Below, piece after piece: positions 9,251 to 46,020 of a stretch of DNA of 64,000 bases. Source of the DNA: Chthoniobacterales bacterium. Lineage in GTDB: Bacteria > Verrucomicrobiota > Verrucomicrobiia > Chthoniobacterales > DASVRZ01. Every line of letters begins with the position of its first letter. The first letter of the stretch is position 1. The notes under the pieces were generated by a model. The model ran no database searches, was not told the DNA's origin, and saw only the letters and a list, made by a program, of their open reading frames with translations. The position numbers and the translations under genes were made by a program. The stretch is taken from the NCBI GenBank assembly GCA_039930045.1, contig JBDSQB010000002.1, forward strand, positions 262,286-326,285. Reading direction: 5' to 3'.

Positions 9251-9280
9251 AAAAGGCGTGGTTTTAAGCCACGCCTTTTT
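9251..9280. terminator. Bidirectional intrinsic terminator between convergent genes
   Basis: AAAA-GGCGTGG-loop-CCACGCC-TTTTT. The 7-bp GC stem has an A-tract on one side and a T-tract on the other. It lies between the GT2 stop (9247) and the clpC stop (9295). Confidence 0.6.
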
Positions 9281-9294
9281 GAGTTTGAGTCGAA

Positions 9295-11787
9295 TCAGAC
9301 TGCGGTCGCAGGCTGCGGCGGTTCGGGTTCCTGAACCACGAACTCGATGTCGCGCGGGCCTTTTTTGGCAATCAAGGTGTCGCCGGTTTTCACCGTGCCC
9401 TTGAGCAATTCCTCCGCCAGCGGGTCTTCCAAGTAACGCTCGACTGCACGCCGCATCGGACGCGCGCCGTAGGCTGGGTCGTATCCTTTTTCGATGAGAA
9501 ATTCGACAGCAGACGGATCAAGGGTGATATGGATTTCCTTGTATTTGAGACGCTTAACGGTCTTCGCGACTTCGAGATCGACGATCTGGGCGAGGTCGGC
9601 TTTTTCCAATGTATGGAAAACAATCAAGTCGTCCAGACGGTTGATGAACTCCGGTTTGAAGACGCGTTTCGCTTCTTCGAGGATTTTCTCGCGCATTAGA
9701 TCGTAGTTGTGCTCATTGCGTGGCGCACCGAAGCCCATCGTGGTCTGGCGTTTGATCGTCTCGGCTCCGACGTTCGAGGTCATAATGATGATCGTATTTC
9801 TGAAGTCGATTTTGCGTCCGAGCGAATCGGTGATTTTTCCCTCCTCCAAAATCTGGAGCATGAGATTCATCACATCAGGGTGCGCTTTTTCCACTTCATC
9901 GAACAGCACGACGCTGTAAGGACGACGGCGCACGGCCTCGGAAAGCTGGCCGCCCTCCTCGTATCCGACGTAGCCCGGAGGCGAACCGATCAGGCGTGAG
10001 GCGGTGAATTTCTCCATGTATTCGGACATGTCGATCTGGATGATGGCATCCTGATCGCCGAACATGAATTCAGCTAAAGTCCTCGCCAGGAAGGTTTTAC
10101 CCACGCCCGTGGGGCCGAGGAAAATGAAGGACCCAATCGGGCGGCGCGGATCTTTCAAGTCCGCGCGGCTGCGGCGCAAGGCCTTGCTCACCGCGATGAC
10201 CGCCTCGTTCTGGCCGATGACGCTGTTTTTCAACTCCGTCTCCATGGTCAGGAGCTTGGTCATTTCCTTTTGCTCCATCCGATTCAGCGGCACGCCGGTC
10301 CACTTGGAAACGATGTGCATCATGTCGTCTTCGGTCACGAGCACCTCCTTCTCCTCGCGCTGTTCGCGCCATTGAGTCAGAATGGATTCGAGCTTCTCCT
10401 TGGCCTGTTTTTCGGTGTCGCGCAGGGCGGCGGCTTTTTCAAAATCCTGGGCCTTGATCGCGCCTTCCTTGTCGGCCTTGATCGACTCGATCTCGGCTTC
10501 GATGTCCTTCACATTCGGCGGGCGCGTCATGGAATTAATCCGGGCGCGGGCACCGGCTTCATCCATCACGTCGATCGCCTTGTCTGGCAGAAAACGATTC
10601 GTCAGATAACGATCCGAGAGCTTCGCGGCAAATTCGAGCGCGGCGTCGGTGAGCTTGGCCTTGTGGTGCGCCTCGTATTTTGGACGGAGCCCCTTCAAAA
10701 TCTCGATGGTTTCCTCGACGCTCGGGGCCTCGACTTTCACGGTCTGGAAACGGCGTTCCAGAGCGGCGTCTTTCTCGATGTATTTGCGGTACTCGGTCAG
10801 CGTAGTCGCGCCAATGCACTGCAACTCGCCCCGGCTCAGCGCGGGCTTGATGATGTTCGACGCATCCATAGCGCCCTCGGCGGAACCAGCGCCCACAATT
10901 GTGTGCAACTCGTCGATAAAAAGGAGAACGTTCTTCGTCCGGCGGATCTCGTCCATGACGGCTTTGATGCGCTCCTCAAACTGGCCGCGATATTTCGTCC
11001 CGGCGACCATGAGGGCCAAGTCGAGTGTGATCACTTTCTTGTCGCGCAGCAGTTCGGGAACGTTGCCGCTCGCGATTTCCTGCGCCAAACCTTCAGCGAT
11101 CGCCGTTTTGCCAACGCCAGCCTCGCCGAGCAAGACGGGGTTGTTCTTGGTGCGGCGGCAGAGAATTTGAATGACGCGCTCAATCTCGTTTTTGCGTCCG
11201 ATGACCGGGTCCAACTCGCCTTTCTTGGCGATCTCAGTCAGGTCACGTCCAAACGCGCGCAGCGCAGGCGTTTTCACATCTTTCTGCTTGCCGGAACCAC
11301 CGCCGGACGGCTCTTGAGGAATGTCCGACTCGCCTTCGGGTGGTGTGTAGTTCGGGTCGAGTTCCTTCATGATCTCGCCGCGAGTGCGCTCGATGTCGAT
11401 TTCCAGCGTCTTCAAAACGCGGGCCGCGACGCCTTCGCCTTCACGGAGGAGTCCCAGTAAAATGTGTTCCGTGCCGACGTAGCTGTGGTTCAGCGTCTTC
11501 GCTTCCTTGCCGGCGAGCGCGAGGACTTTTTTCACCCGCGGCGTGTAGGGAATATTCCCGACCATCTTGGTCTCAGGACCGGAGCCGACCTGTTTTTCGA
11601 CTTCCATCCGGACGGTTTCGAGGTCGAGTCCCATTTTTTGCAATACGTTGACCGCGACGCCTTGGCCGAGTTTGATCAAGCCGAGCAAGAGATGCTCAGT
11701 GCCCACGTAATTGTGGTTGAAACGATCCGCTTCTTTGCGGGCTAGAGCCAGGACCTGTTGAGCACGAGGAGTGAAATTATTCATCAT
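9295..11787 (-). CDS. clpC: ATP-dependent Clp protease ATP-binding subunit ClpC
   Basis: Duplicated Clp_N repeats (GTEHLLLGL twice). Two AAA modules ([17 protein letters not shown]). UVR-like middle region. 830 aa. Confidence 0.92.
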
Positions 11788-11914: not shown

Positions 11915-13213
11915 TCAACGGGCGCCCATCGGGGCTTCCAGATGTACGGGCTGGCTGGTCGAACCGACCTCACCTGAACGGGTGGTGCCGCGCTTGAAAA
12001 GCAGTTTGGCCGAACGAATCTCCACGCCATCGGGTGACTCGGCGACGATTGGAATTTCAAATTCCCCATCGGGCAGCCGGAAGTGGTAGCGGAAGCTGCC
12101 GTCCTTCGCGAGGGCGATTTCCTTGCCATCGATCCAGACGGTCGCATCAGGATGCGTGCCGCCGTAGAAAATGACCTCGGCATTCACGTGCATGAAAAAG
12201 TCCCGGCTCTCGCCGCCAAACGGCTGCGCGCTCCAGCTCGAACCCAAGGCTCCCGACCAGCTGGATTCGCCGCCGACGGCGGTGACCCAACTCGATTCAC
12301 CGGACCAGCTTGCTCCGATTCCACTGAAAAGACTGCTCTCGTGCCAGGTCGAGCCGACGAGGTTTTGCAGGAACGACATTTCGCTGGAACTCGGCGAGCT
12401 GAGCGATTCCGAAAGCGCCTCGGCGAGACGTTTGCGGAAAATCTGGTCGATGTCCGCCGAGCCGAGGCTGATCTGGGAAACGAGGTCCGAACCAACCAGG
12501 GTCTCGAGCAGATTGCGCTGCTCGTCCGTCCAGTCGCTGGCGATTTGTTGGAGGTTTTTCGTCGCATCGCCCTGCAACCGGGCCAGCGATCTCACCAGCG
12601 AACTGCCGGCTTCCATGTCGTTCTGAACCATTTCCAGCATTCGATTGAAACTCAAATGGAAGGGCACTGAGGCAAATTCCGCCTGGCCTTCGGTGAATGT
12701 ATCGGCGGGCGCGAGGGCGATATTCGACGTGCCGACGACGGACCATTTCGAGCGAACATCATTGAAACCCAACTCGACGTAATAGGGCACGCCGGCGTCG
12801 TTGATCGGGAAATACCAATTTTTCGCCTGCGTGTTGACGCGGATTTGATCGGTCAACTCGCCCTTTTCCGTGTAAACCTTCAGATAAAAAGTCGCCTCGT
12901 CCTCGACCATCAGACTGCGGTCGAAACTTTCCAGATCGAGATCCCAATAAACGAAAAGCCAGTGCGGATCGCGGGCGGCGAGATAAATCTGGCCCGTCTG
13001 ATAGGAAGCGGGCAATTCGCCGAGGTTTTCGTAGCCTGCGGCGCTGGCGGAACTGGTGGCCAGGGCCGGCTCCTCAATGGGAATCTCCGGGATGGCTTCC
13101 ACGGCCGCGGGAGTGACGACCCGACTGGCGATGGTTGGTTCGGTGCTGATTTTGAAAGGCTGCTCGCTGGTTTCAGCTTCGTCTAGCCTGGATGTTTTTG
13201 GATCGTTTCCCAT
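11915..13213 (-). CDS. Hypothetical protein, DUF4912-like
   Basis: Clean 432-aa ORF upstream of clpC. The motif RDPHWLFVYWDL resembles the DUF4912 signature as I remember it. Ser/Trp-rich middle and beta-rich C-terminus. Function unknown. Confidence 0.6.
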   Translation of the reverse strand: MGNDPKTSRLDEAETSEQPFKISTEPTIASRVVTPAAVEAIPEIPIEEPALATSSASAAGYENLGELPASYQTGQIYLAARDPHWLFVYWDLDLESFDRSLMVEDEATFYLKVYTEKGELTDQIRVNTQAKNWYFPINDAGVPYYVELGFNDVRSKWSVVGTSNIALAPADTFTEGQAEFASVPFHLSFNRMLEMVQNDMEAGSSLVRSLARLQGDATKNLQQIASDWTDEQRNLLETLVGSDLVSQISLGSADIDQIFRKRLAEALSESLSSPSSSEMSFLQNLVGSTWHESSLFSGIGASWSGESSWVTAVGGESSWSGALGSSWSAQPFGGESRDFFMHVNAEVIFYGGTHPDATVWIDGKEIALAKDGSFRYHFRLPDGEFEIPIVAESPDGVEIRSAKLLFKRGTTRSGEVGSTSQPVHLEAPMGAR

Positions 13214-13389: not shown

Positions 13390-14151
13390 ATGTTTACCAA
13401 ACGCGTTATTCCCTGTCTTGATGTGACCAATGGACGGGTGGTGAAGGGCACGCAGTTTCTGGAATTGCGCGATGCAGGCGACCCGGTCGAATGCGCCCTC
13501 GCCTATAATAATCAGGGTGCGGACGAGCTTGTTTTTCTGGACATCACGGCTTCGTCCGACAATCGCAATACCATGATCGATGTCGTCGAACGCACGGCGG
13601 ATCAATGTTTCATGCCGCTAACCGTTGGAGGAGGGATTCGCACGGTGGCCGATGTCCGCGCGATGCTCCTGGCCGGAGCGGACAAGGTGAGCATGAACAC
13701 GGCGGCGATTGCGAATCCGGGTCTGATTAGCGCGGCGGCGGAAGGTTTTGGGTCGCAATGTGTCGTCGTCGCCATCGACGCTCGGAAAAACGACCGCGGC
13801 GGCTGGACGGTTTACACGCATGGCGGGCGCAAGCCGACGGAGCTGGATGCGATTGCCTGGGCAATCGAGGCCGAAAAACGCGGCGCGGGTGAGATTCTAC
13901 TCACGAGCATGGACGCCGACGGCACAAAGGACGGCTACGATCTCGCGCTGACCGCAGCCGTGAGCGAGCGTATCGGCATTCCCGTGATCGCCAGCGGCGG
14001 TGCGGGAAAACTGGAGCATCTGGCCCGCGTGCTCGACGAAGGAAAAGCCGACGCCGTGCTCGCAGCGAGCATTTTCCATTTTGGAGAATTCACCGTCGGA
14101 GACGTGAAACGCTACCTCCGCGCCCAAGGCGTGCCGGTGCGACTGGAGTAG
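13390..14151 (+). CDS. hisF: Imidazole glycerol phosphate synthase cyclase subunit
   Basis: [36 protein letters not shown] motifs. About 253 aa from the ATG at 13390. Confidence 0.93.
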
Positions 14152-14233
14152 GCCTTAATACTAGAAGCGCTAAGATTCAGGTGACGGGATTTTTGATTTG
14201 AGTTAGATTCGACTTCAACAACCCGGAGGAATT

Positions 14234-14326
14234 ATGGCAAAAGGAAATAACAGTCATCGCAAGGAAGTGAAGAAGCCCAAAAAGAAGACGCTTCCCGGAC
14301 AGGTCCAGCCACCGTCGAAAAACTAG
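14234..14326 (+). CDS. Small basic protein, 30 aa (MAKGNNSHRKEVKKPKKKTLPGQVQPPSKN)
   Basis: ATG preceded by GGAGGA at 14225-14230 with 3-nt spacing. Absent from the ORF track because it is short. It resembles small Lys-rich hypothetical proteins seen in other bacteria; this is from memory and unverified. Confidence 0.5.
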   Translation: MAKGNNSHRKEVKKPKKKTLPGQVQPPSKN

Positions 14327-14359
14327 AGCGGAATCAGGGCCCCTATTGAGTTGGGGAAA

Positions 14360-16117
14360 CTACTCGGCGAATTGCAGGCTGTGGAGCGTGGCGTAAAGAC
14401 CGTTTTGCGCCATCAAGGTGGCGTGCGTTCCTTGCTCGACCACGCGGCCAGCGTCCATCACGAGAATTTCATTCGCCTTCACGATGGTGCTCAGCCGGTG
14501 CGCGATGACCAGCGTCGTGCGGCTGCTCATGAGACGTTCGAGCGCTTCCTGAATGAGCCGCTCGGAGACGCTGTCGAGTGCCGACGTCGCCTCGTCGAGA
14601 ATGAGGATGCGCGGGTTTTTTAAGATCACCCGGGCGATGGCGATGCGCTGACGCTGCCCGCCGGAAAGGGTGACGCCCCGTTCGCCGATCTCGGAGTTGT
14701 AGCTGTTGGCAAATTTCTCGATGAAGTCGTGCGCGTTCGCCGCCCGGGCAGCCTCGATCATTTCCTCGTCGGTGGCGTCGGGTTTGCCGTATTTGATGTT
14801 TTCGCGGATGGAGCCGGAAAAAAGGATGTTTTCCTGCATGACGATCCCGATCTGGCGGCGGAGCGACTGGACGTTGAAGTCGCGGATGTCCCGTCCGTCG
14901 ATCAATATCCGGCCCTCGGTCGCCTCGTAAAACCGTGCGAGCAGGGTGATGATGGTGCTTTTTCCCGCGCCGCTCGGGCCGACCAGCGCCAGCATTTTCC
15001 CCGGAGCCACGGCGAAATGGACATCGCGTAACGTGTCCTGATGCGACTTGTAGCCAAATGAAACGTGATCAAAAGTCACCTCGCCGCGCACCGTCGGCAG
15101 CGCGGGCAGCAGGTCGTTTTCCGGCACGGCAGGCTGCGTGTCCATGACATTGAAGATTTGTTCCAGCGCGACGACGGCGGTCTGAATCACGGAATTCGCG
15201 TCCACGATCCGGGTGATCGGCGTGTAGAGGAGGGCGAGATAGAAATTAAAGGCGACGAGCTGGCCCACGGTGAATCCGTCGATGTGATGCCAGGCCAGCC
15301 ACGAGCCGTAGCCGAGCACGACCAAAGTCCCGAGGCCGGTGACGAGTTCCGCGCCGCCGCCAAGCAGTCCGTTGCGCCAGAGGAGGCGGGTGAAATTAAC
15401 GAGGTCCTTTTCGATGCGGAGGTTGAATTGGTTCATCTCGATTTCCTCCGTGGCGAAGGCGCGCACGAGCCGAGACGAGGCGATGCGCTCGTTGAGAAAC
15501 CCGATTACTTTGTCCCAGTTGCGCCGGTGGCGGCGTGCCTCGACCCGCAAACGGCGGCGATGCCAGAAGAAGTTCATCAAGAACAACGGCAGCACGCAGT
15601 AGGTGACGAGCGCCAGTTTCCAATGCGTGCAGGCGAGCACCACAAGGACGCCGCTGACGGTAACGAGGTCGCCGATGAGGTTGACCGACGCGCCTGAGAC
15701 GAGGCTAAACATGGCCCCGGTGTCGTTGGCAACGCGGGTGACGATTTTCCCCGTTTGCCGCTCATCGTAGAAACGCAGGGAGAGCTTCTGGAGGTGCGCG
15801 AAAATGTTGATCCGCATGTCGCAGGTCACGCGCATCCCGGTTTTTTGCAGAAGATAATTGCGGGCGAGCGTGGCGAAGACTTTGAAAACCACCGCCGCTG
15901 AGAAGCCGGCGAGGAGCCAGAGGATTCCGCTCCAGGGCTGCGTGCGCGTGACCCGGTCGATGACGGCTCCGACCAGATACGGACGGACGAGTTCGAGCGC
16001 GGCGACGGTCAATAAAAGCAGCAGAACGACCAAAAACCGCCCGCGATAGGGCACGAGATAACTAAAAAACCGTCGCAGAATCCGAAAGGTGTCGTCGCGG
16101 GAGTGGCGTCTGCGCAT
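14360..16117 (-). CDS. ABC exporter, fused permease and ATPase (MsbA/ABCB type)
   Basis: Six-TM N-terminal half. [22 protein letters not shown] and ILILDEATSALD motifs. Start chosen at MRRRHSR. A GTG at 16243 overlapping the arfB stop is an alternative start. Confidence 0.88.
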   Translation of the reverse strand: MRRRHSRDDTFRILRRFFSYLVPYRGRFLVVLLLLLTVAALELVRPYLVGAVIDRVTRTQPWSGILWLLAGFSAAVVFKVFATLARNYLLQKTGMRVTCDMRINIFAHLQKLSLRFYDERQTGKIVTRVANDTGAMFSLVSGASVNLIGDLVTVSGVLVVLACTHWKLALVTYCVLPLFLMNFFWHRRRLRVEARRHRRNWDKVIGFLNERIASSRLVRAFATEEIEMNQFNLRIEKDLVNFTRLLWRNGLLGGGAELVTGLGTLVVLGYGSWLAWHHIDGFTVGQLVAFNFYLALLYTPITRIVDANSVIQTAVVALEQIFNVMDTQPAVPENDLLPALPTVRGEVTFDHVSFGYKSHQDTLRDVHFAVAPGKMLALVGPSGAGKSTIITLLARFYEATEGRILIDGRDIRDFNVQSLRRQIGIVMQENILFSGSIRENIKYGKPDATDEEMIEAARAANAHDFIEKFANSYNSEIGERGVTLSGGQRQRIAIARVILKNPRILILDEATSALDSVSERLIQEALERLMSSRTTLVIAHRLSTIVKANEILVMDAGRVVEQGTHATLMAQNGLYATLHSLQFAE

Positions 16118-26351: not shown

Positions 26352-27439
26352 TCCGCCATCTCTATGTGCACATCCCGTTTTGCCCGAAGGTTTGTCCGTA
26401 TTGTTCCTTCTACAAGGAGGCCTCGGATCGCAACAAGACGCAGCGTTTCCTAGACGCGGTTCTATCCGAGTTAAATGCCGCTCAGAAGACACACCAGCTT
26501 CAACCTGAGACAATCTTTTTCGGCGGCGGCACTCCCACGGCGCTGAGCACACCGCAACTCAGCTATTTGTTGGAAGGTCTCCGCGAGCGGCTAGATATCA
26601 CGCATCTCCACGAATGGACTCTGGAGATGAATCCAGCCACGGTTTCCCTCGAGAAAGCGGCGCGGCTGCGGGAGCTGGGAGTCAATCGCGTGAGCATGGG
26701 CGTGCAGGCCTGGGACGAGGCGACTTTGAAAGCATTGGGCCGCGTCCATTCGGCGGAACAAGCCTTGCGCTCGTATCACATCTTGCGCGAGGCGGGTTTT
26801 TCTAACATCAACCTCGACCTCATCTTTGGCACTCCCGGACAAAGCCAGGAAGTCTGGTTCGACAACTTAAAAAAGACAATCGAGTTAGAACCGAATCACA
26901 TCTCCGCCTACTGTCTAACCTACGAAGAGGACACGGAGTTTTTTCGCCGCTTTCAAAGTGGCGAGTTGCAGCAGGATGAGAACGCCGACGCTGATCTCTA
27001 CGAGGGAAGCATCGCGATGTTAGAAGCCGCTGGCTACGTTCAGTACGAGACCTCGAACTACGCGCGCCCTGGATTCGAGTGTGAGCATAATCTGGCCTAT
27101 TGGTTAGGATACGATTATCTCGGGCTGGGCCCCAGTGCGTTCTCCACGGTCGGCAGTGCGCGCTGGAAAAATCTCCCCGACACCACGGCTTACTGCCAGC
27201 TCATCGAAAGCTGCGGAGAGGCGAAGTCTTTCCATGAATCCGTCACGCCCGAGATTCGTCACAGCGAGCTAGTCGCATTCGGGTTGCGCACGAATCGCGG
27301 CGTTTCGATGTTAGGACTTCCCCTGCCGCAGATCGCGCGCCTAACCGCAGATGGGTTTCTAACTCAAATGGAAGATCGCGTCTTCCTAACCAAACAAGGC
27401 CGGCTCGTCGCCGACAGCGTGGCCGAGCTGCTTATCTAA
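26348..27439 (+). CDS. hemW: Radical SAM family heme chaperone HemW (HemN-like, oxygen-independent coproporphyrinogen oxidase family)
   Basis: HIPFCPKVCPYCSFY CxxxCxxC motif, GGGTP, HemN_C-like tail. ATGA overlap with the upstream gene. Confidence 0.85.
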   Translation: MIRHLYVHIPFCPKVCPYCSFYKEASDRNKTQRFLDAVLSELNAAQKTHQLQPETIFFGGGTPTALSTPQLSYLLEGLRERLDITHLHEWTLEMNPATVSLEKAARLRELGVNRVSMGVQAWDEATLKALGRVHSAEQALRSYHILREAGFSNINLDLIFGTPGQSQEVWFDNLKKTIELEPNHISAYCLTYEEDTEFFRRFQSGELQQDENADADLYEGSIAMLEAAGYVQYETSNYARPGFECEHNLAYWLGYDYLGLGPSAFSTVGSARWKNLPDTTAYCQLIESCGEAKSFHESVTPEIRHSELVAFGLRTNRGVSMLGLPLPQIARLTADGFLTQMEDRVFLTKQGRLVADSVAELLI

Positions 27440-27440
27440 C

Positions 27441-28631
27441 ATGGCTTTTCAATTCGACGTCATCATCGTGGGAGCGGGACCGGCGGGCTCGGTTTGCGCC
27501 ACCGTCTGCGCGCGCCAGGGCATGAGAGTCCTCGTGATTGATCGTGAAAAATTTCCCCGCGACAAGGTCTGCGGCGACTGCCTGAATCCCGCCGCCTGGA
27601 AAGTGTTACAGCGCCTCGGCATCGACGAACGCATTCGTTCCCTGCCCCATTCGCCTCTGAAAAAGGTGCAGATTGCTACGATCAACGACCGCGTTTTCGA
27701 TTTCCCGCTGCATGGCGGCGAGGCGGGCGAGATCGGCATTCGGCGACGCGAGCTGGACCTGACTTTGATTCAAATGGCGCGTGCTGCCGGTGCGGCGTTT
27801 CTGGAAAACACAGCGGTGACTTCCGTCCAGGGGAACTGGCAGATCGAGGCGGGCGGCCGGCATTTCACCGCAAAGACGCTCGTCGCCGCAGACGGACGCA
27901 ACTCGACCGTGGCCCGGCTCCTCGGGATGATGCCCGCGCAGCAAAAAGACCGCGTCGGCATCCAGACGCACGTGCCGCTCGCGTCGCATCAATTCAACTC
28001 GGTTCGCATGCAACTCCACCCCGAGGGTTACAGCGGCGGCGCGAGCATCGGGGACAACCTTTGGAATCTCTGCCTAGTCGCCCGTGGCGAAAACATCGAG
28101 GCGCTCAAGCAGCGGGCCACGAAACTCTGGAAGCTCCCGTCGAACTTGCACTGGCGCAGCCTGACTCCACTCAGCCGCCGCCCGCTCCCTGCTGCGAAGG
28201 GCTCCCTATTTCTCGTCGGCGACGCCGCCCGCGTGGTGGAGCCTTTCACCGGCGAGGGAATTTATTACGCCCTCGCGAGTGGCGAACTGGCCGGACAAAA
28301 CATCACGCAGCCCGACGTTTACCGGAAAAAGCACGCCGAGCTTTATCGCGGTCGCCTCTGGGTCAATCAGCTTGCGAAATGGGCCGTGCTGCACCCAGTC
28401 GCCACGAGCTGGGCTCTGGAAAACCTCCCCGCTGAGCGGATTCTCAGTCACCTCACTGCCAAAGTGACCGCTCCTGTCGTGAAAACGCCTAGTAACCCGT
28501 CTCGCCGCCGCGATTTCCGCCCTTCTGGGGCACCTCGTGCGGGGCTTCCTGCTGACTACCCTTTTCAGGATGCCCATGTTCCTCGTGCAATGGTGCCGTT
28601 TCCTCCGCAGAATGACGTTCACACGCCGTAA
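27441..28631 (+). CDS. FAD-dependent oxidoreductase (geranylgeranyl reductase family)
   Basis: DVIIVGAGPAGS Rossmann motif, GDCLNP, and LVGDAARVVEPFTGEGI. The last ~55 aa are Pro/Arg-rich and overlap a convergent small gene, so the true C-terminus is uncertain. Confidence 0.8.
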   Translation: MAFQFDVIIVGAGPAGSVCATVCARQGMRVLVIDREKFPRDKVCGDCLNPAAWKVLQRLGIDERIRSLPHSPLKKVQIATINDRVFDFPLHGGEAGEIGIRRRELDLTLIQMARAAGAAFLENTAVTSVQGNWQIEAGGRHFTAKTLVAADGRNSTVARLLGMMPAQQKDRVGIQTHVPLASHQFNSVRMQLHPEGYSGGASIGDNLWNLCLVARGENIEALKQRATKLWKLPSNLHWRSLTPLSRRPLPAAKGSLFLVGDAARVVEPFTGEGIYYALASGELAGQNITQPDVYRKKHAELYRGRLWVNQLAKWAVLHPVATSWALENLPAERILSHLTAKVTAPVVKTPSNPSRRRDFRPSGAPRAGLPADYPFQDAHVPRAMVPFPPQNDVHTP

Positions 28632-29971: not shown

Positions 29972-30085
29972 TCTTCGGGAGCGCACGCGTCTCGCGTGTT
30001 CCCTTTTGAGTCCCGCGAAAGGGCCGGTTCTCGCCATCGGACGGGACGTCCGCTGGAACACGCGGGACGCGTGCGCTCCCGGGGA
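29972..30085. repeat. Long near-perfect inverted repeat: ~27-31 bp arms, ~52-nt structured spacer
   Basis: Left arm GGGAGCGCACGCGTCTCGCGTGTTCC (29977-30002) is the reverse complement of the right arm GGAACACGCGGGACGCGTGCGCTCCC (30055-30080) with one mismatch. An inner GTCCCG/CGGGAC stem is present. It lies in the 147-nt gap between the two permease genes. Confidence 0.75.
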
Positions 30086-31476: not shown

Positions 31477-32217
31477 TTAAATCGGGATGTCGCTCTCGAT
31501 GAGGCCGTCGCGTAGCCGCACGACGCGCCGGGCGTGCTGGGCGATGTCTTCCTCGTGCGTGACGACGATGATGGTGTTCCCAGCTTGGTAAAGGGTCTCG
31601 AAGAGCGCCATGATTTCCTCCCCGGTCTTGCTGTCGAGGTTGCCCGTGGGCTCGTCGGCGAGGATGATCGAGGGGCTATTGACGAGGGCGCGGGCAATGG
31701 CGACGCGCTGACGCTGCCCGCCGGAAAGTTCGTTCGGTTTATGGTGCATTCGCTCGCCCAATCCGACCGAGGTGAGGGTGGCGGCGGCGCGCTTCGAGCG
31801 TTCCTCGCGGCTGATGCCGGCATAGACGAGGGGCAGCTCGACGTTGGCGAGGCTGGTGGAGCGCGGGAGGAGGTTGAAGGTCTGGAAGACGAAGCCGATC
31901 TCGCGGTTGCGGATGGTGGCGAGGTCGTCATCGGTCATGGCGGCGACGTTTTTCCCAGAGAACTCGTAGTGGCCCGCACTGGGGGTGTCGAGGCAGCCGA
32001 GCATATTCATCAAAGTCGATTTGCCGGAGCCCGACGGGCCCATGATGGCGAGGTATTCGTTGCGATGAATGCGTAGATTGACCCCGCGCAGGGCCTTGAT
32101 GGTGGTGTCGCCCATGATGTATTCGCGGGTGAGCCCGCGGATGTCGATAACGAGCGGCCCCGGCGGTCGGGTGGTGCGCGAATGGACTGTGGTGGTGGGA
32201 AGGGTGGTGGCGCTCAT
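31477..32217 (-). CDS. ABC transporter ATP-binding protein (MacB/LolD family)
   Basis: [36 protein letters not shown]. Confidence 0.92.
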
Positions 32218-40343: not shown

Positions 40344-40365
40344 ACAAAATTTGGTAGTGGTTGGG

Positions 40366-40401
40366 GCCGGGGCATCCATCAGGGGTGCCCCGGCTTTTTT
40401 T
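40366..40401 (+). terminator. Rho-independent terminator
   Basis: 9-bp perfect stem GCCGGGGCA / TGCCCCGGC, 11-nt loop, then seven T residues. Begins 23 nt after the stop at 40343. Confidence 0.75.
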
Positions 40402-40470
40402 CATTTGAGTTAGATTCCATTCAGAAAACTCTTGGAATCTGCCGCTGGATTCGCTATTTCACTCAACTTC

Positions 40471-40902
40471 ATGGACGAATTCATGCGCGCTGCCATCGAT
40501 GATGCGAAAAAAGGTCTCGCCGAGGGCGGCATTCCCATTGGCTCGGCGATTGCCCGCGATGGACAGCTTCTGGCCACGGGCCACAACAAGCGCGTGCAGG
40601 ACGGCGACCCCATTACCCATGCGGAGATCGATTGTCTGCGCAACGCCGGGCGCATCGGCCACTATCGGGGGACGACCTTATATTCCACGCTCATGCCCTG
40701 CTACTTGTGCTCGGGCGCGGTGGTGCAGTTTGGAATCAAGAAGGTCATCGTGGGCGAAAGCCGCACATTTCCCGGTGGGCCGGAGTTTATGCGCGCCCAC
40801 GGCGTGGAGGTGATCGATCTCGACCTGCCGGAATGTTACGAGATGATGGCGAAATTCATCGAAGAAAATCCCTTGCTCTGGAACGAGGATATAGGCAAAT
40901 AG
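40471..40902 (+). CDS. CDA-fold cytosine deaminase (yeast Fcy1-like) / nucleoside deaminase
   Basis: HAEIDCLRNAG and PCYLCSGA zinc motifs. Overall collinearity with yeast Fcy1, including the C-terminal ..LWNEDIGK (compare ..DWFEDIGE). Confidence 0.8.
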   Translation: MDEFMRAAIDDAKKGLAEGGIPIGSAIARDGQLLATGHNKRVQDGDPITHAEIDCLRNAGRIGHYRGTTLYSTLMPCYLCSGAVVQFGIKKVIVGESRTFPGGPEFMRAHGVEVIDLDLPECYEMMAKFIEENPLLWNEDIGK

Positions 40903-41454: not shown

Positions 41455-41557
41455 GATCCAACTCCGCTCTGTTTTTCAGAGGGGAATGGAACTCGTCCGC
41501 GCAACTTTCTGCTGCCTGCGCTTGCCAGCTTTTCCCGTCCTGCCCTAGAGTCTCCCC

Positions 41558-45155: not shown

Positions 45156-45214
45156 AAAAGGATTGGGAATTGGGGATTGATTTTGGGGACTTCGCTTCCT
45201 AGATTGGGCGAACG

Positions 45215-45982: not shown

Positions 45983-46020
45983 ACTCCAGCGTATAAATCC
46001 GACTCCTCACATCTAGCTTC

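Follow-up and report, generated by a model that had tools for sequence, protein, structure and literature searches.

A short and probably young intergenic repeat with a candidate promoter core at two loci of a Chthoniobacterales genome

A nearly identical segment of about 21–27 nt lies in intergenic DNA at two places of the 64-kb window (the whole stretch of DNA that was analysed), ahead of a 30-codon basic ORF at locus 1 and ahead of a cytosine/CMP-type deaminase gene at locus 2. It is a minor repeat, probably of young age, and not a new regulatory system. The reading favoured here, tentatively and with somewhat less than even confidence, is that of a young duplicated promoter core, which would be functional at locus 1, its role at locus 2 being doubtful. 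Nothing in the sequences compared points to a conserved regulatory system, to a structured RNA or to a mobile element. Proteins encoded in the neighbourhood of the two loci are 100% identical to those of a Chthoniobacterales (Verrucomicrobiota) MAG, where they lie on a 644-kb contig. The features concerned are collected in Table 1.

Table 1. Coordinates of the repeat copies and of the features around them in the window
Feature	Position	Strand	Remarks
Degenerate third copy TTTTGAGTTTGAGTCGAATCAGA	9277–9299	+	Follows a bidirectional terminator between convergent GT2 (+) and clp (-)
-35-like GTGACG (4/6)	14181–14186	+	17 nt 5' of TAGATT
Copy 1 of the repeat	14190–14217	+	Core 15-mer ATTTGAGTTAGATTC at 14196–14210
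-10-like TAGATT in copy 1	14204–14209	+	Same hexamer as the conserved -10 at 45200–45205
Shine-Dalgarno GGAGG (14225–14229) and 30-codon basic ORF MAKGNNSHRKEVKKPKKKTLPGQVQPPSKN (14234–14326)	14225–14326	+	
Intrinsic terminator of the DUF4410 gene	40363–40397	+	Stem invariant in five genomes
Copy 2 of the repeat	40397–40423	+	Core 15-mer ATTTGAGTTAGATTC at 40403–40417
-10-like TAGATT in copy 2	40411–40416	+	No -35; CCCCGG at 17 nt
Inverted repeat AGATTCCA-N13-TGGAATCT	40412–40440	+	Overlaps copy 2
Candidate proximal deaminase promoter TTGGAA-N17-TATTTC	40432–40460	+	10 nt before the ATG at 40471; putative

Sequence and copies of the repeat

The window contains exactly two occurrences of the core 15-mer ATTTGAGTTAGATTC, both on the plus strand and in intergenic DNA, which reproduces what the initial annotation had described. 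Aligned without gaps, the two copies agree at 20 of 21 positions (TTTTT[G/C]ATTTGAGTTAGATTC, 14190–14210 versus 40397–40417; blastn-short E = 7e-4 for an 82-nt query against 202 kb), and with one indel the likeness runs on through S-A-(C)TTCA (14214–14217 and 40420–40423), in which form the previously claimed extension of the flanks to about 27 nt holds. The copies are directly oriented, 26.2 kb apart, and are placed alike with respect to the direction of the next gene, the 15-mer being separated from the start codon by 23 nt at locus 1 (ATG at 14234) and by 53 nt at locus 2 (ATG at 40471). They share no similarity past about 27 nt and contain no common terminal inverted repeat, palindrome or target-site duplication. 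The degenerate third copy has TTGAGT at the -10 position, where the key adenine is missing, and is followed by no plus-strand gene, and thus it cannot be a promoter. Recurrence amounts to two good copies and one degenerate copy in 64 kb, and in relatives to none that is unexplained by orthology.

Chance matches and other repeats in the window

Chance was assessed on pairs of different intergenic segments, which together amount to about 3.5 kb. Between such segments, dinucleotide shuffles gave an exact match of at least 15 nt in 1.25% of trials and block shuffles preserving local composition gave an exact 15-mer match in about 1%, while a match of at least 20/21 was found in none of 1500 block shuffles. 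When the whole window was compared all against all, only five pairs reached 20/21 (order-2 Markov mean, 0.07). The window also holds 44 direct 15-mer pairs, nearly all of which are GC-rich coding motifs, so that exact repeats of this length are nothing unusual here. Pure chance is an unlikely source of the match between the two copies, but not overwhelmingly so. The repeat is probably non-random, with p of about 0.002–0.07 depending on the search space, a modest value when many windows are scanned.

The sub-word TTTGAGTT occurs 13 times against 1.7 expected, or 6.6 under an order-5 model, and this excess was discarded as motif evidence, as it consists mostly of (E/K)-L-K coding codons on either strand. 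Other repeats were also recorded. The longest exact direct repeat in the window (24 nt; 14645–14668 and 31705–31728) is explained by the LSGGQRQR signature-motif codons common to two ABC ATPase genes. An inverted repeat of about 16 nt (29976–29991 and 30066–30081), with arms about 90 nt apart, lies between two MacB-type permease genes and is one of the only five window pairs at 20/21. A 14-mer overlapping the core word (12649–12662 and 27361–27374; minus-strand reading CTTCCATTTGAGTT) is common to the coding regions of DUF4912 (sense) and hemN (antisense), probably by chance.

Locus 1: the hisF junction and the small ORF

Copy 1 is situated inside the 208-nt junction between hisF (13390–14151) and a convergent minus-strand ABC transporter gene (14360–16117), upstream of the 30-codon ORF. 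The GTGACG hexamer pointed out by the initial annotation is indeed found 17 nt 5' of TAGATT, which in turn lies 24 nt before the small ORF. The combined arrangement GTGACG-N17-TAGATT scores 8/12, equal to the conserved promoter of the TPR gene described below, and belongs to a small number of sigma-70-like sites that precede a gene anywhere in the window. The small ORF is preceded by GGAGG at ideal spacing. Its protein cluster comprises four sequence variants in public data, of which residues 1–17 are invariant; no relatives beyond this cluster were found among 1.84 billion representative proteins, and there was no Pfam hit.

The genes hisF and, upstream of it, clp and DUF4912 are syntenic with relative L123, and the gene after hisF differs in each relative examined (L123, L126, L127 and L130). 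In L131 and L135 the ABC transporter gene is followed by peptidases (M48/MA-type), none of which is present in the window, and in L135 it comes directly after a FAD-binding gene, whose window counterpart is located at 27441–28631. Compared with L135 (8626–13736) and L131 (1853–4522), the window (14152–16117) has the ABC transporter moved and inverted beside hisF. Because the gene after hisF is variable and the ABC transporter has moved, locus 1 is identified, from gene order, as a lineage-specific rearrangement junction.

Promoters and leaders in this lineage

The TPR gene (45215) is preceded by TTGATT-N17-TAGATT, 9 nt before its ATG (window 45177–45214), and this promoter is identical in L115 and has TAAATT as its -10 in L117. 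The conserved arrangement places TAGATT in use as a -10 element in the lineage. TTGCCA-N18-TAGAGT lies 6 nt before the GTG of dnaX (window 41522–41557), and TTGCAG-N17-TATAAA was read off the sequences upstream of exbB (about 45990–46020).

Conserved sigma-70-like promoters that end 6–10 nt before the start codon imply leaderless messages or very short leaders. Most genes in the window and in the relatives have no Shine-Dalgarno sequence, and their upstream regions are G-poor. The most over-represented 8-mers of the window under an order-3 model are ACTAACAA, TCTAACAT, TACTAACA and TATCTAAC, and several over-represented 8-mers fall at gene junctions or start codons (e.g. ...CTAACATG). The sequence CTAACTC-NN-ATG stands directly before arfB (16620, minus strand) and before ybaB and exbB of L115.

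Locus 2: from the DUF4410 terminator to the deaminase gene

Copy 2 begins in the T-tract of the DUF4410 terminator, whose hairpin directly precedes it as had been stated, and is followed by the deaminase gene (40471–40902), an RRM protein gene and dnaX. The 8-bp inverted repeat previously seen to overlap copy 2 was recovered as well; it is absent from locus 1 and was found nowhere else.

Loci syntenic with locus 2 were recovered from relatives, which are ordered here by the identity of their DUF4410 protein (L128, 90%; L115, 88%; L117–L119, 83%; L120, 72%). The alignment of the spacer covered five genomes, in all of which the stem of the terminator and the TAGTGGTTGG ahead of it are invariant; the three genomes that have the deaminase gene also show conservation over the 20 nt leading up to its start codon. 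The 15-mer stretch is unalignable at the orthologous locus 2 (L115, L117, L128 and L120), and since it lies between conserved flanks, it would be young at locus 2 and free of the selection acting on them. The conservation in related genomes on which the initial annotation had staked its element is thus lacking at this locus.

The 3' region of the DUF4410 gene (window 40350–40397; L115 8870–8915; equivalents in L117, L128 and L120) combines TAGTGGTTGG with a GC-rich hairpin. A stem that is invariant at 72–90% protein identity, in a spacer otherwise unalignable, exceeds, as judged from the alignment, what a plain terminator would need. The site just after this terminator is variable: in L128 (5516–6024) a toxin-antitoxin pair (Unstab_antitox and its partner) is inserted directly after it, and in L120 (10648–10915) the deaminase gene is absent and the RRM gene comes next.

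The arrangement TTGGAA-N17-TATTTC keeps its position in L115 and L117, and appears a better candidate for the deaminase promoter than copy 2. If TAGATT of copy 2 served as the -10, the leader would be about 48 nt long, whereas the conserved promoters of the lineage lie 6–10 nt from the start codon.

Searches beyond the window

An exact scan for TTTNATTTGAGTTAGATTC over 185,579 species genomes (one per species, apparently without the source species) returned 30 single hits only, in unrelated and mostly AT-rich taxa, against an estimate of about 17 expected at uniform composition. None of the 185,579 genomes contained two hits, and the sole hit in Verrucomicrobia (L032) falls within an 876-aa ORF. 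The hits in the genome collection are at chance level. About 140 kb of related Chthoniobacterales loci and 271 kb of unrelated GC-rich controls were searched with mismatches allowed and with a profile, one search using a subset of about 107 kb of the related loci; a few near matches came up in L115 and none in the controls. The L115 candidates were all rejected. One spans the exbB leader and the MKK start codons and matches copy 2 at 20/20 on the other strand, and its window orthologue reads CACATCTAGCTTCATG, which is not the motif; another, upstream of aat, consists of the VDLG-stop codons of a conserved gene, the window orthologue of which is likewise non-motif; and the ybaB leader, tried as a third extra copy, is a convergent resemblance and not a family member. 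Look-alikes of such quality evidently can arise by chance convergence in this lineage, to judge from these orthologues. The further copies in relatives to which the initial annotation had looked therefore failed to appear, with no good ones in the Chthoniobacterales loci and none above chance in the species genomes.

A metagenome search with the deaminase protein yielded 80 loci distributed across phyla, many of them cyanobacterial-like at 40% GC, with no synteny, and the motif is absent from all 80, which were used as a negative control only. At the gathering score, Rfam found nothing in the window except tRNA-Gln; in E-value mode there was no match at locus 1, and at locus 2 a weak P31 match over the terminator (20 bits versus the 40-bit threshold). 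The leader fold z-scores of -0.95 and +0.40 are not those of unusually stable structures. A literature search for the repeat words retrieved unrelated primers only. GANTC (CcrM-type) sites number 279 against about 237 expected, with an intergenic enrichment of only about 1.8-fold, and their clustering was dropped for want of a signal. By eye, neither a sigma-54 pattern nor TTGAGT as a -35 gave a fit.

Discussion

Under the favoured reading, the element would be a young repeat of about 21–27 nt, specific to the species or genus, carrying a sigma-70-type promoter core that is composed of an AT-rich spacer, the -10 TAGATT and a CA start site 7–8 nt downstream. GTGACG at 17 nt would complete the promoter at locus 1, leading to a short mRNA in which a Shine-Dalgarno sequence precedes the 30-codon basic ORF, while the copy at locus 2 would serve the deaminase gene at most as a weak secondary promoter or an AT-rich upstream element, and may be inert. 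A -10 hexamer whose second base is A and whose sixth is T is present in copies 1 and 2 but not in the third, and both copies have a CA dinucleotide and TTCA at the distance expected of a start site. Regarding a -35 at 16–18 nt upstream, locus 1 offers GTGACG, which matches at 4/6, and locus 2 offers CCCCGG, which is unlike TTGACA; a generic promoter scan needing 9/12 found no match at either locus. The shared promoter suggested by the initial annotation is accordingly plausible at locus 1, where a 4/6 -35, CA, a GGAGG-led ORF and the TAGATT of the lineage occur together, but at locus 2 the -35 is wanting.

Recognition by sigma-70 needs no identity across the promoter spacer. Hence the promoter reading accounts for the location of the repeat and not for the identity itself, which extends over 21 nt and includes this spacer. 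Neither copy is old, as copy 1 lies at a lineage-specific junction and the 15-mer of copy 2 is missing from syntenic relatives whose neighbouring proteins are 83–90% identical. Since, in addition, sigma-70 does not demand spacer identity, a recent short duplication is a simpler account than selection for a common binding site, and the identity past the -10 would reflect common descent, through the local copying of about 25 nt in recent times, rather than deep functional constraint. Promoter activity, the start site and the origin by duplication are all what we infer from the nucleotide sequence.

Coincidence, in which two T-rich spacers, one of them a distal terminator T-tract, happen to match over 15–21 nt, is a serious rival although somewhat unlikely. 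With an expectation of about 0.07 pairs at 20/21 per 64-kb window and E = 7e-4, scans of many windows will yield such pairs; moreover, an exact 15-mer is reached in about 1% of intergenic shuffles, two equally good 'copies' in L115 are demonstrably convergent, the orthologous locus 2 is without conservation, and the genome-collection scan produced only chance-level singletons. It fits poorly with the failure of all 1500 composition-preserving intergenic shuffles to reach 20/21, with the same orientation of both copies towards the next gene, and with the existence of a degenerate third intergenic copy. An operator of one transcription factor, overlapping the -10 and co-regulating the small basic protein and the cytosine deaminase, is quite unlikely. 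The identity spans the spacer and the -10, a typical position for a repressor site, and an inverted repeat of 8 bp overlaps the copy at locus 2; yet the 15-mer has neither a dyad nor a clear direct-repeat symmetry, the inverted repeat is missing at locus 1 and elsewhere, the site is not conserved before the orthologous deaminase gene in L115 and L117, and no further copies are found upstream of other genes in the 64-kb window and about 140 kb of relatives. AGATTC-N17-GAATCT, tried as a palindromic operator, proved unique to locus 2. The earlier proposals of a shared operator or regulon, or of the 5' end of a conserved leader, are thus unsupported, as the 15-mer cannot be aligned at the orthologous locus 2 of L115, L117, L128 and L120. 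It is improbable that the 21-mer arose recently as the target of a regulator, or of an alternative sigma factor, that is uncharacterised so far in this uncultured Chthoniobacterales genus, and which would couple the lineage-restricted 30-residue basic protein to the deaminase and have more sites elsewhere on the 644-kb contig.

Little probability is also given to an origin of the repeat as what a small repeated or mobile sequence, or a microhomology-mediated rearrangement, left behind at variable intergenic spots. Such an origin would suit locus 1 as a rearrangement junction, where the gene after hisF varies and the ABC transporter has moved relative to L135 and L131, as well as the spot behind the DUF4410 terminator, which gained a toxin-antitoxin pair in L128 and is without the deaminase gene in L120, and the degenerate third copy, which also follows a terminator. 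It is opposed by the lack of terminal inverted repeats, target-site duplications and likeness past about 27 nt, by the collinearity of locus 2 with L115 and L117, which leaves no breakpoint there, and by the number of copies, only two to three. On the opposite strand the element reads GAATCTAACTCAAAT(G), resembling a G-poor start-proximal leader without a Shine-Dalgarno sequence, of the kind typical for the lineage, and the copies could then be relics of minus-strand gene starts, in keeping with CTAACTC-NN-ATG directly before the real starts of arfB, ybaB and exbB and with the minus-strand reading of copy 2, CTAACTCAAATGAAAAAAA. However, a minus-strand ORF from 40406 would cross the conserved terminator and the DUF4410 gene antisense, copy 1 has ATC and not ATG, and the L115 leaders are orthologous to non-motif window sequences; the anatomy of the loci disfavours this reading, which seems very improbable. 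Two direct intergenic copies at a distance of 26.2 kb might finally be taken for attL/attR repeats around an integrated element of 26 kb. The probability of this is practically negligible, as it is refuted by gene content and synteny: the interval is made up of housekeeping genes, namely sucCD, gltA, arfB, histidine kinases, hemN, MacB/ABC efflux, aat and CNNM (Pfam), contains no integrase, recombinase or transposase between the copies, and shows block-wise collinearity with L117 and L135 that continues across locus 2.

The putative duplicated promoter core may be compared with known systems. Like a sigma-70 promoter, the repeat has a TAnnnT -10 (TAGATT) ahead of a co-oriented gene, with a 17-nt spacer to the TTGACA-like GTGACG at locus 1 and CA 7–8 nt downstream, and TAGATT is a conserved -10 elsewhere in the lineage; unlike such a promoter, copy 2 lacks a -35, the identity covers a normally unconstrained spacer, and relatives do not share the element at the orthologous site. 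Putative mobile promoters, a class reportedly described by Nijveen, Matus-Garcia and van Passel in 2012, are said to be intergenic segments that carry a promoter, are almost the same in sequence and stand before unrelated genes; they typically measure from tens to hundreds of bp and come in several copies. The repeat resembles them as a near-identical, -10-bearing segment before two unrelated genes that is absent at the orthologous site of relatives, but differs in that only about 21–27 nt are common, copies number two to three, and no mechanism of mobility was seen. It is also similar to REP/MITE repeats in being short, intergenic, lineage-specific and located beside terminators, but has no common palindromic body, terminal inverted repeats or target-site duplication, and its copy number is very low.

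The importance of the repeat is little outside annotation. For motif hunting it carries a caution, as look-alikes of 15–20 nt easily converge in the G-poor leaders of this lineage, which are devoid of Shine-Dalgarno sequences. If the promoter reading is right, the element would mark where a small conserved protein gene begins, one that most pipelines barely call, and would add one more case of a sigma-70-like TAGAnT -10 in an uncultured Verrucomicrobium.
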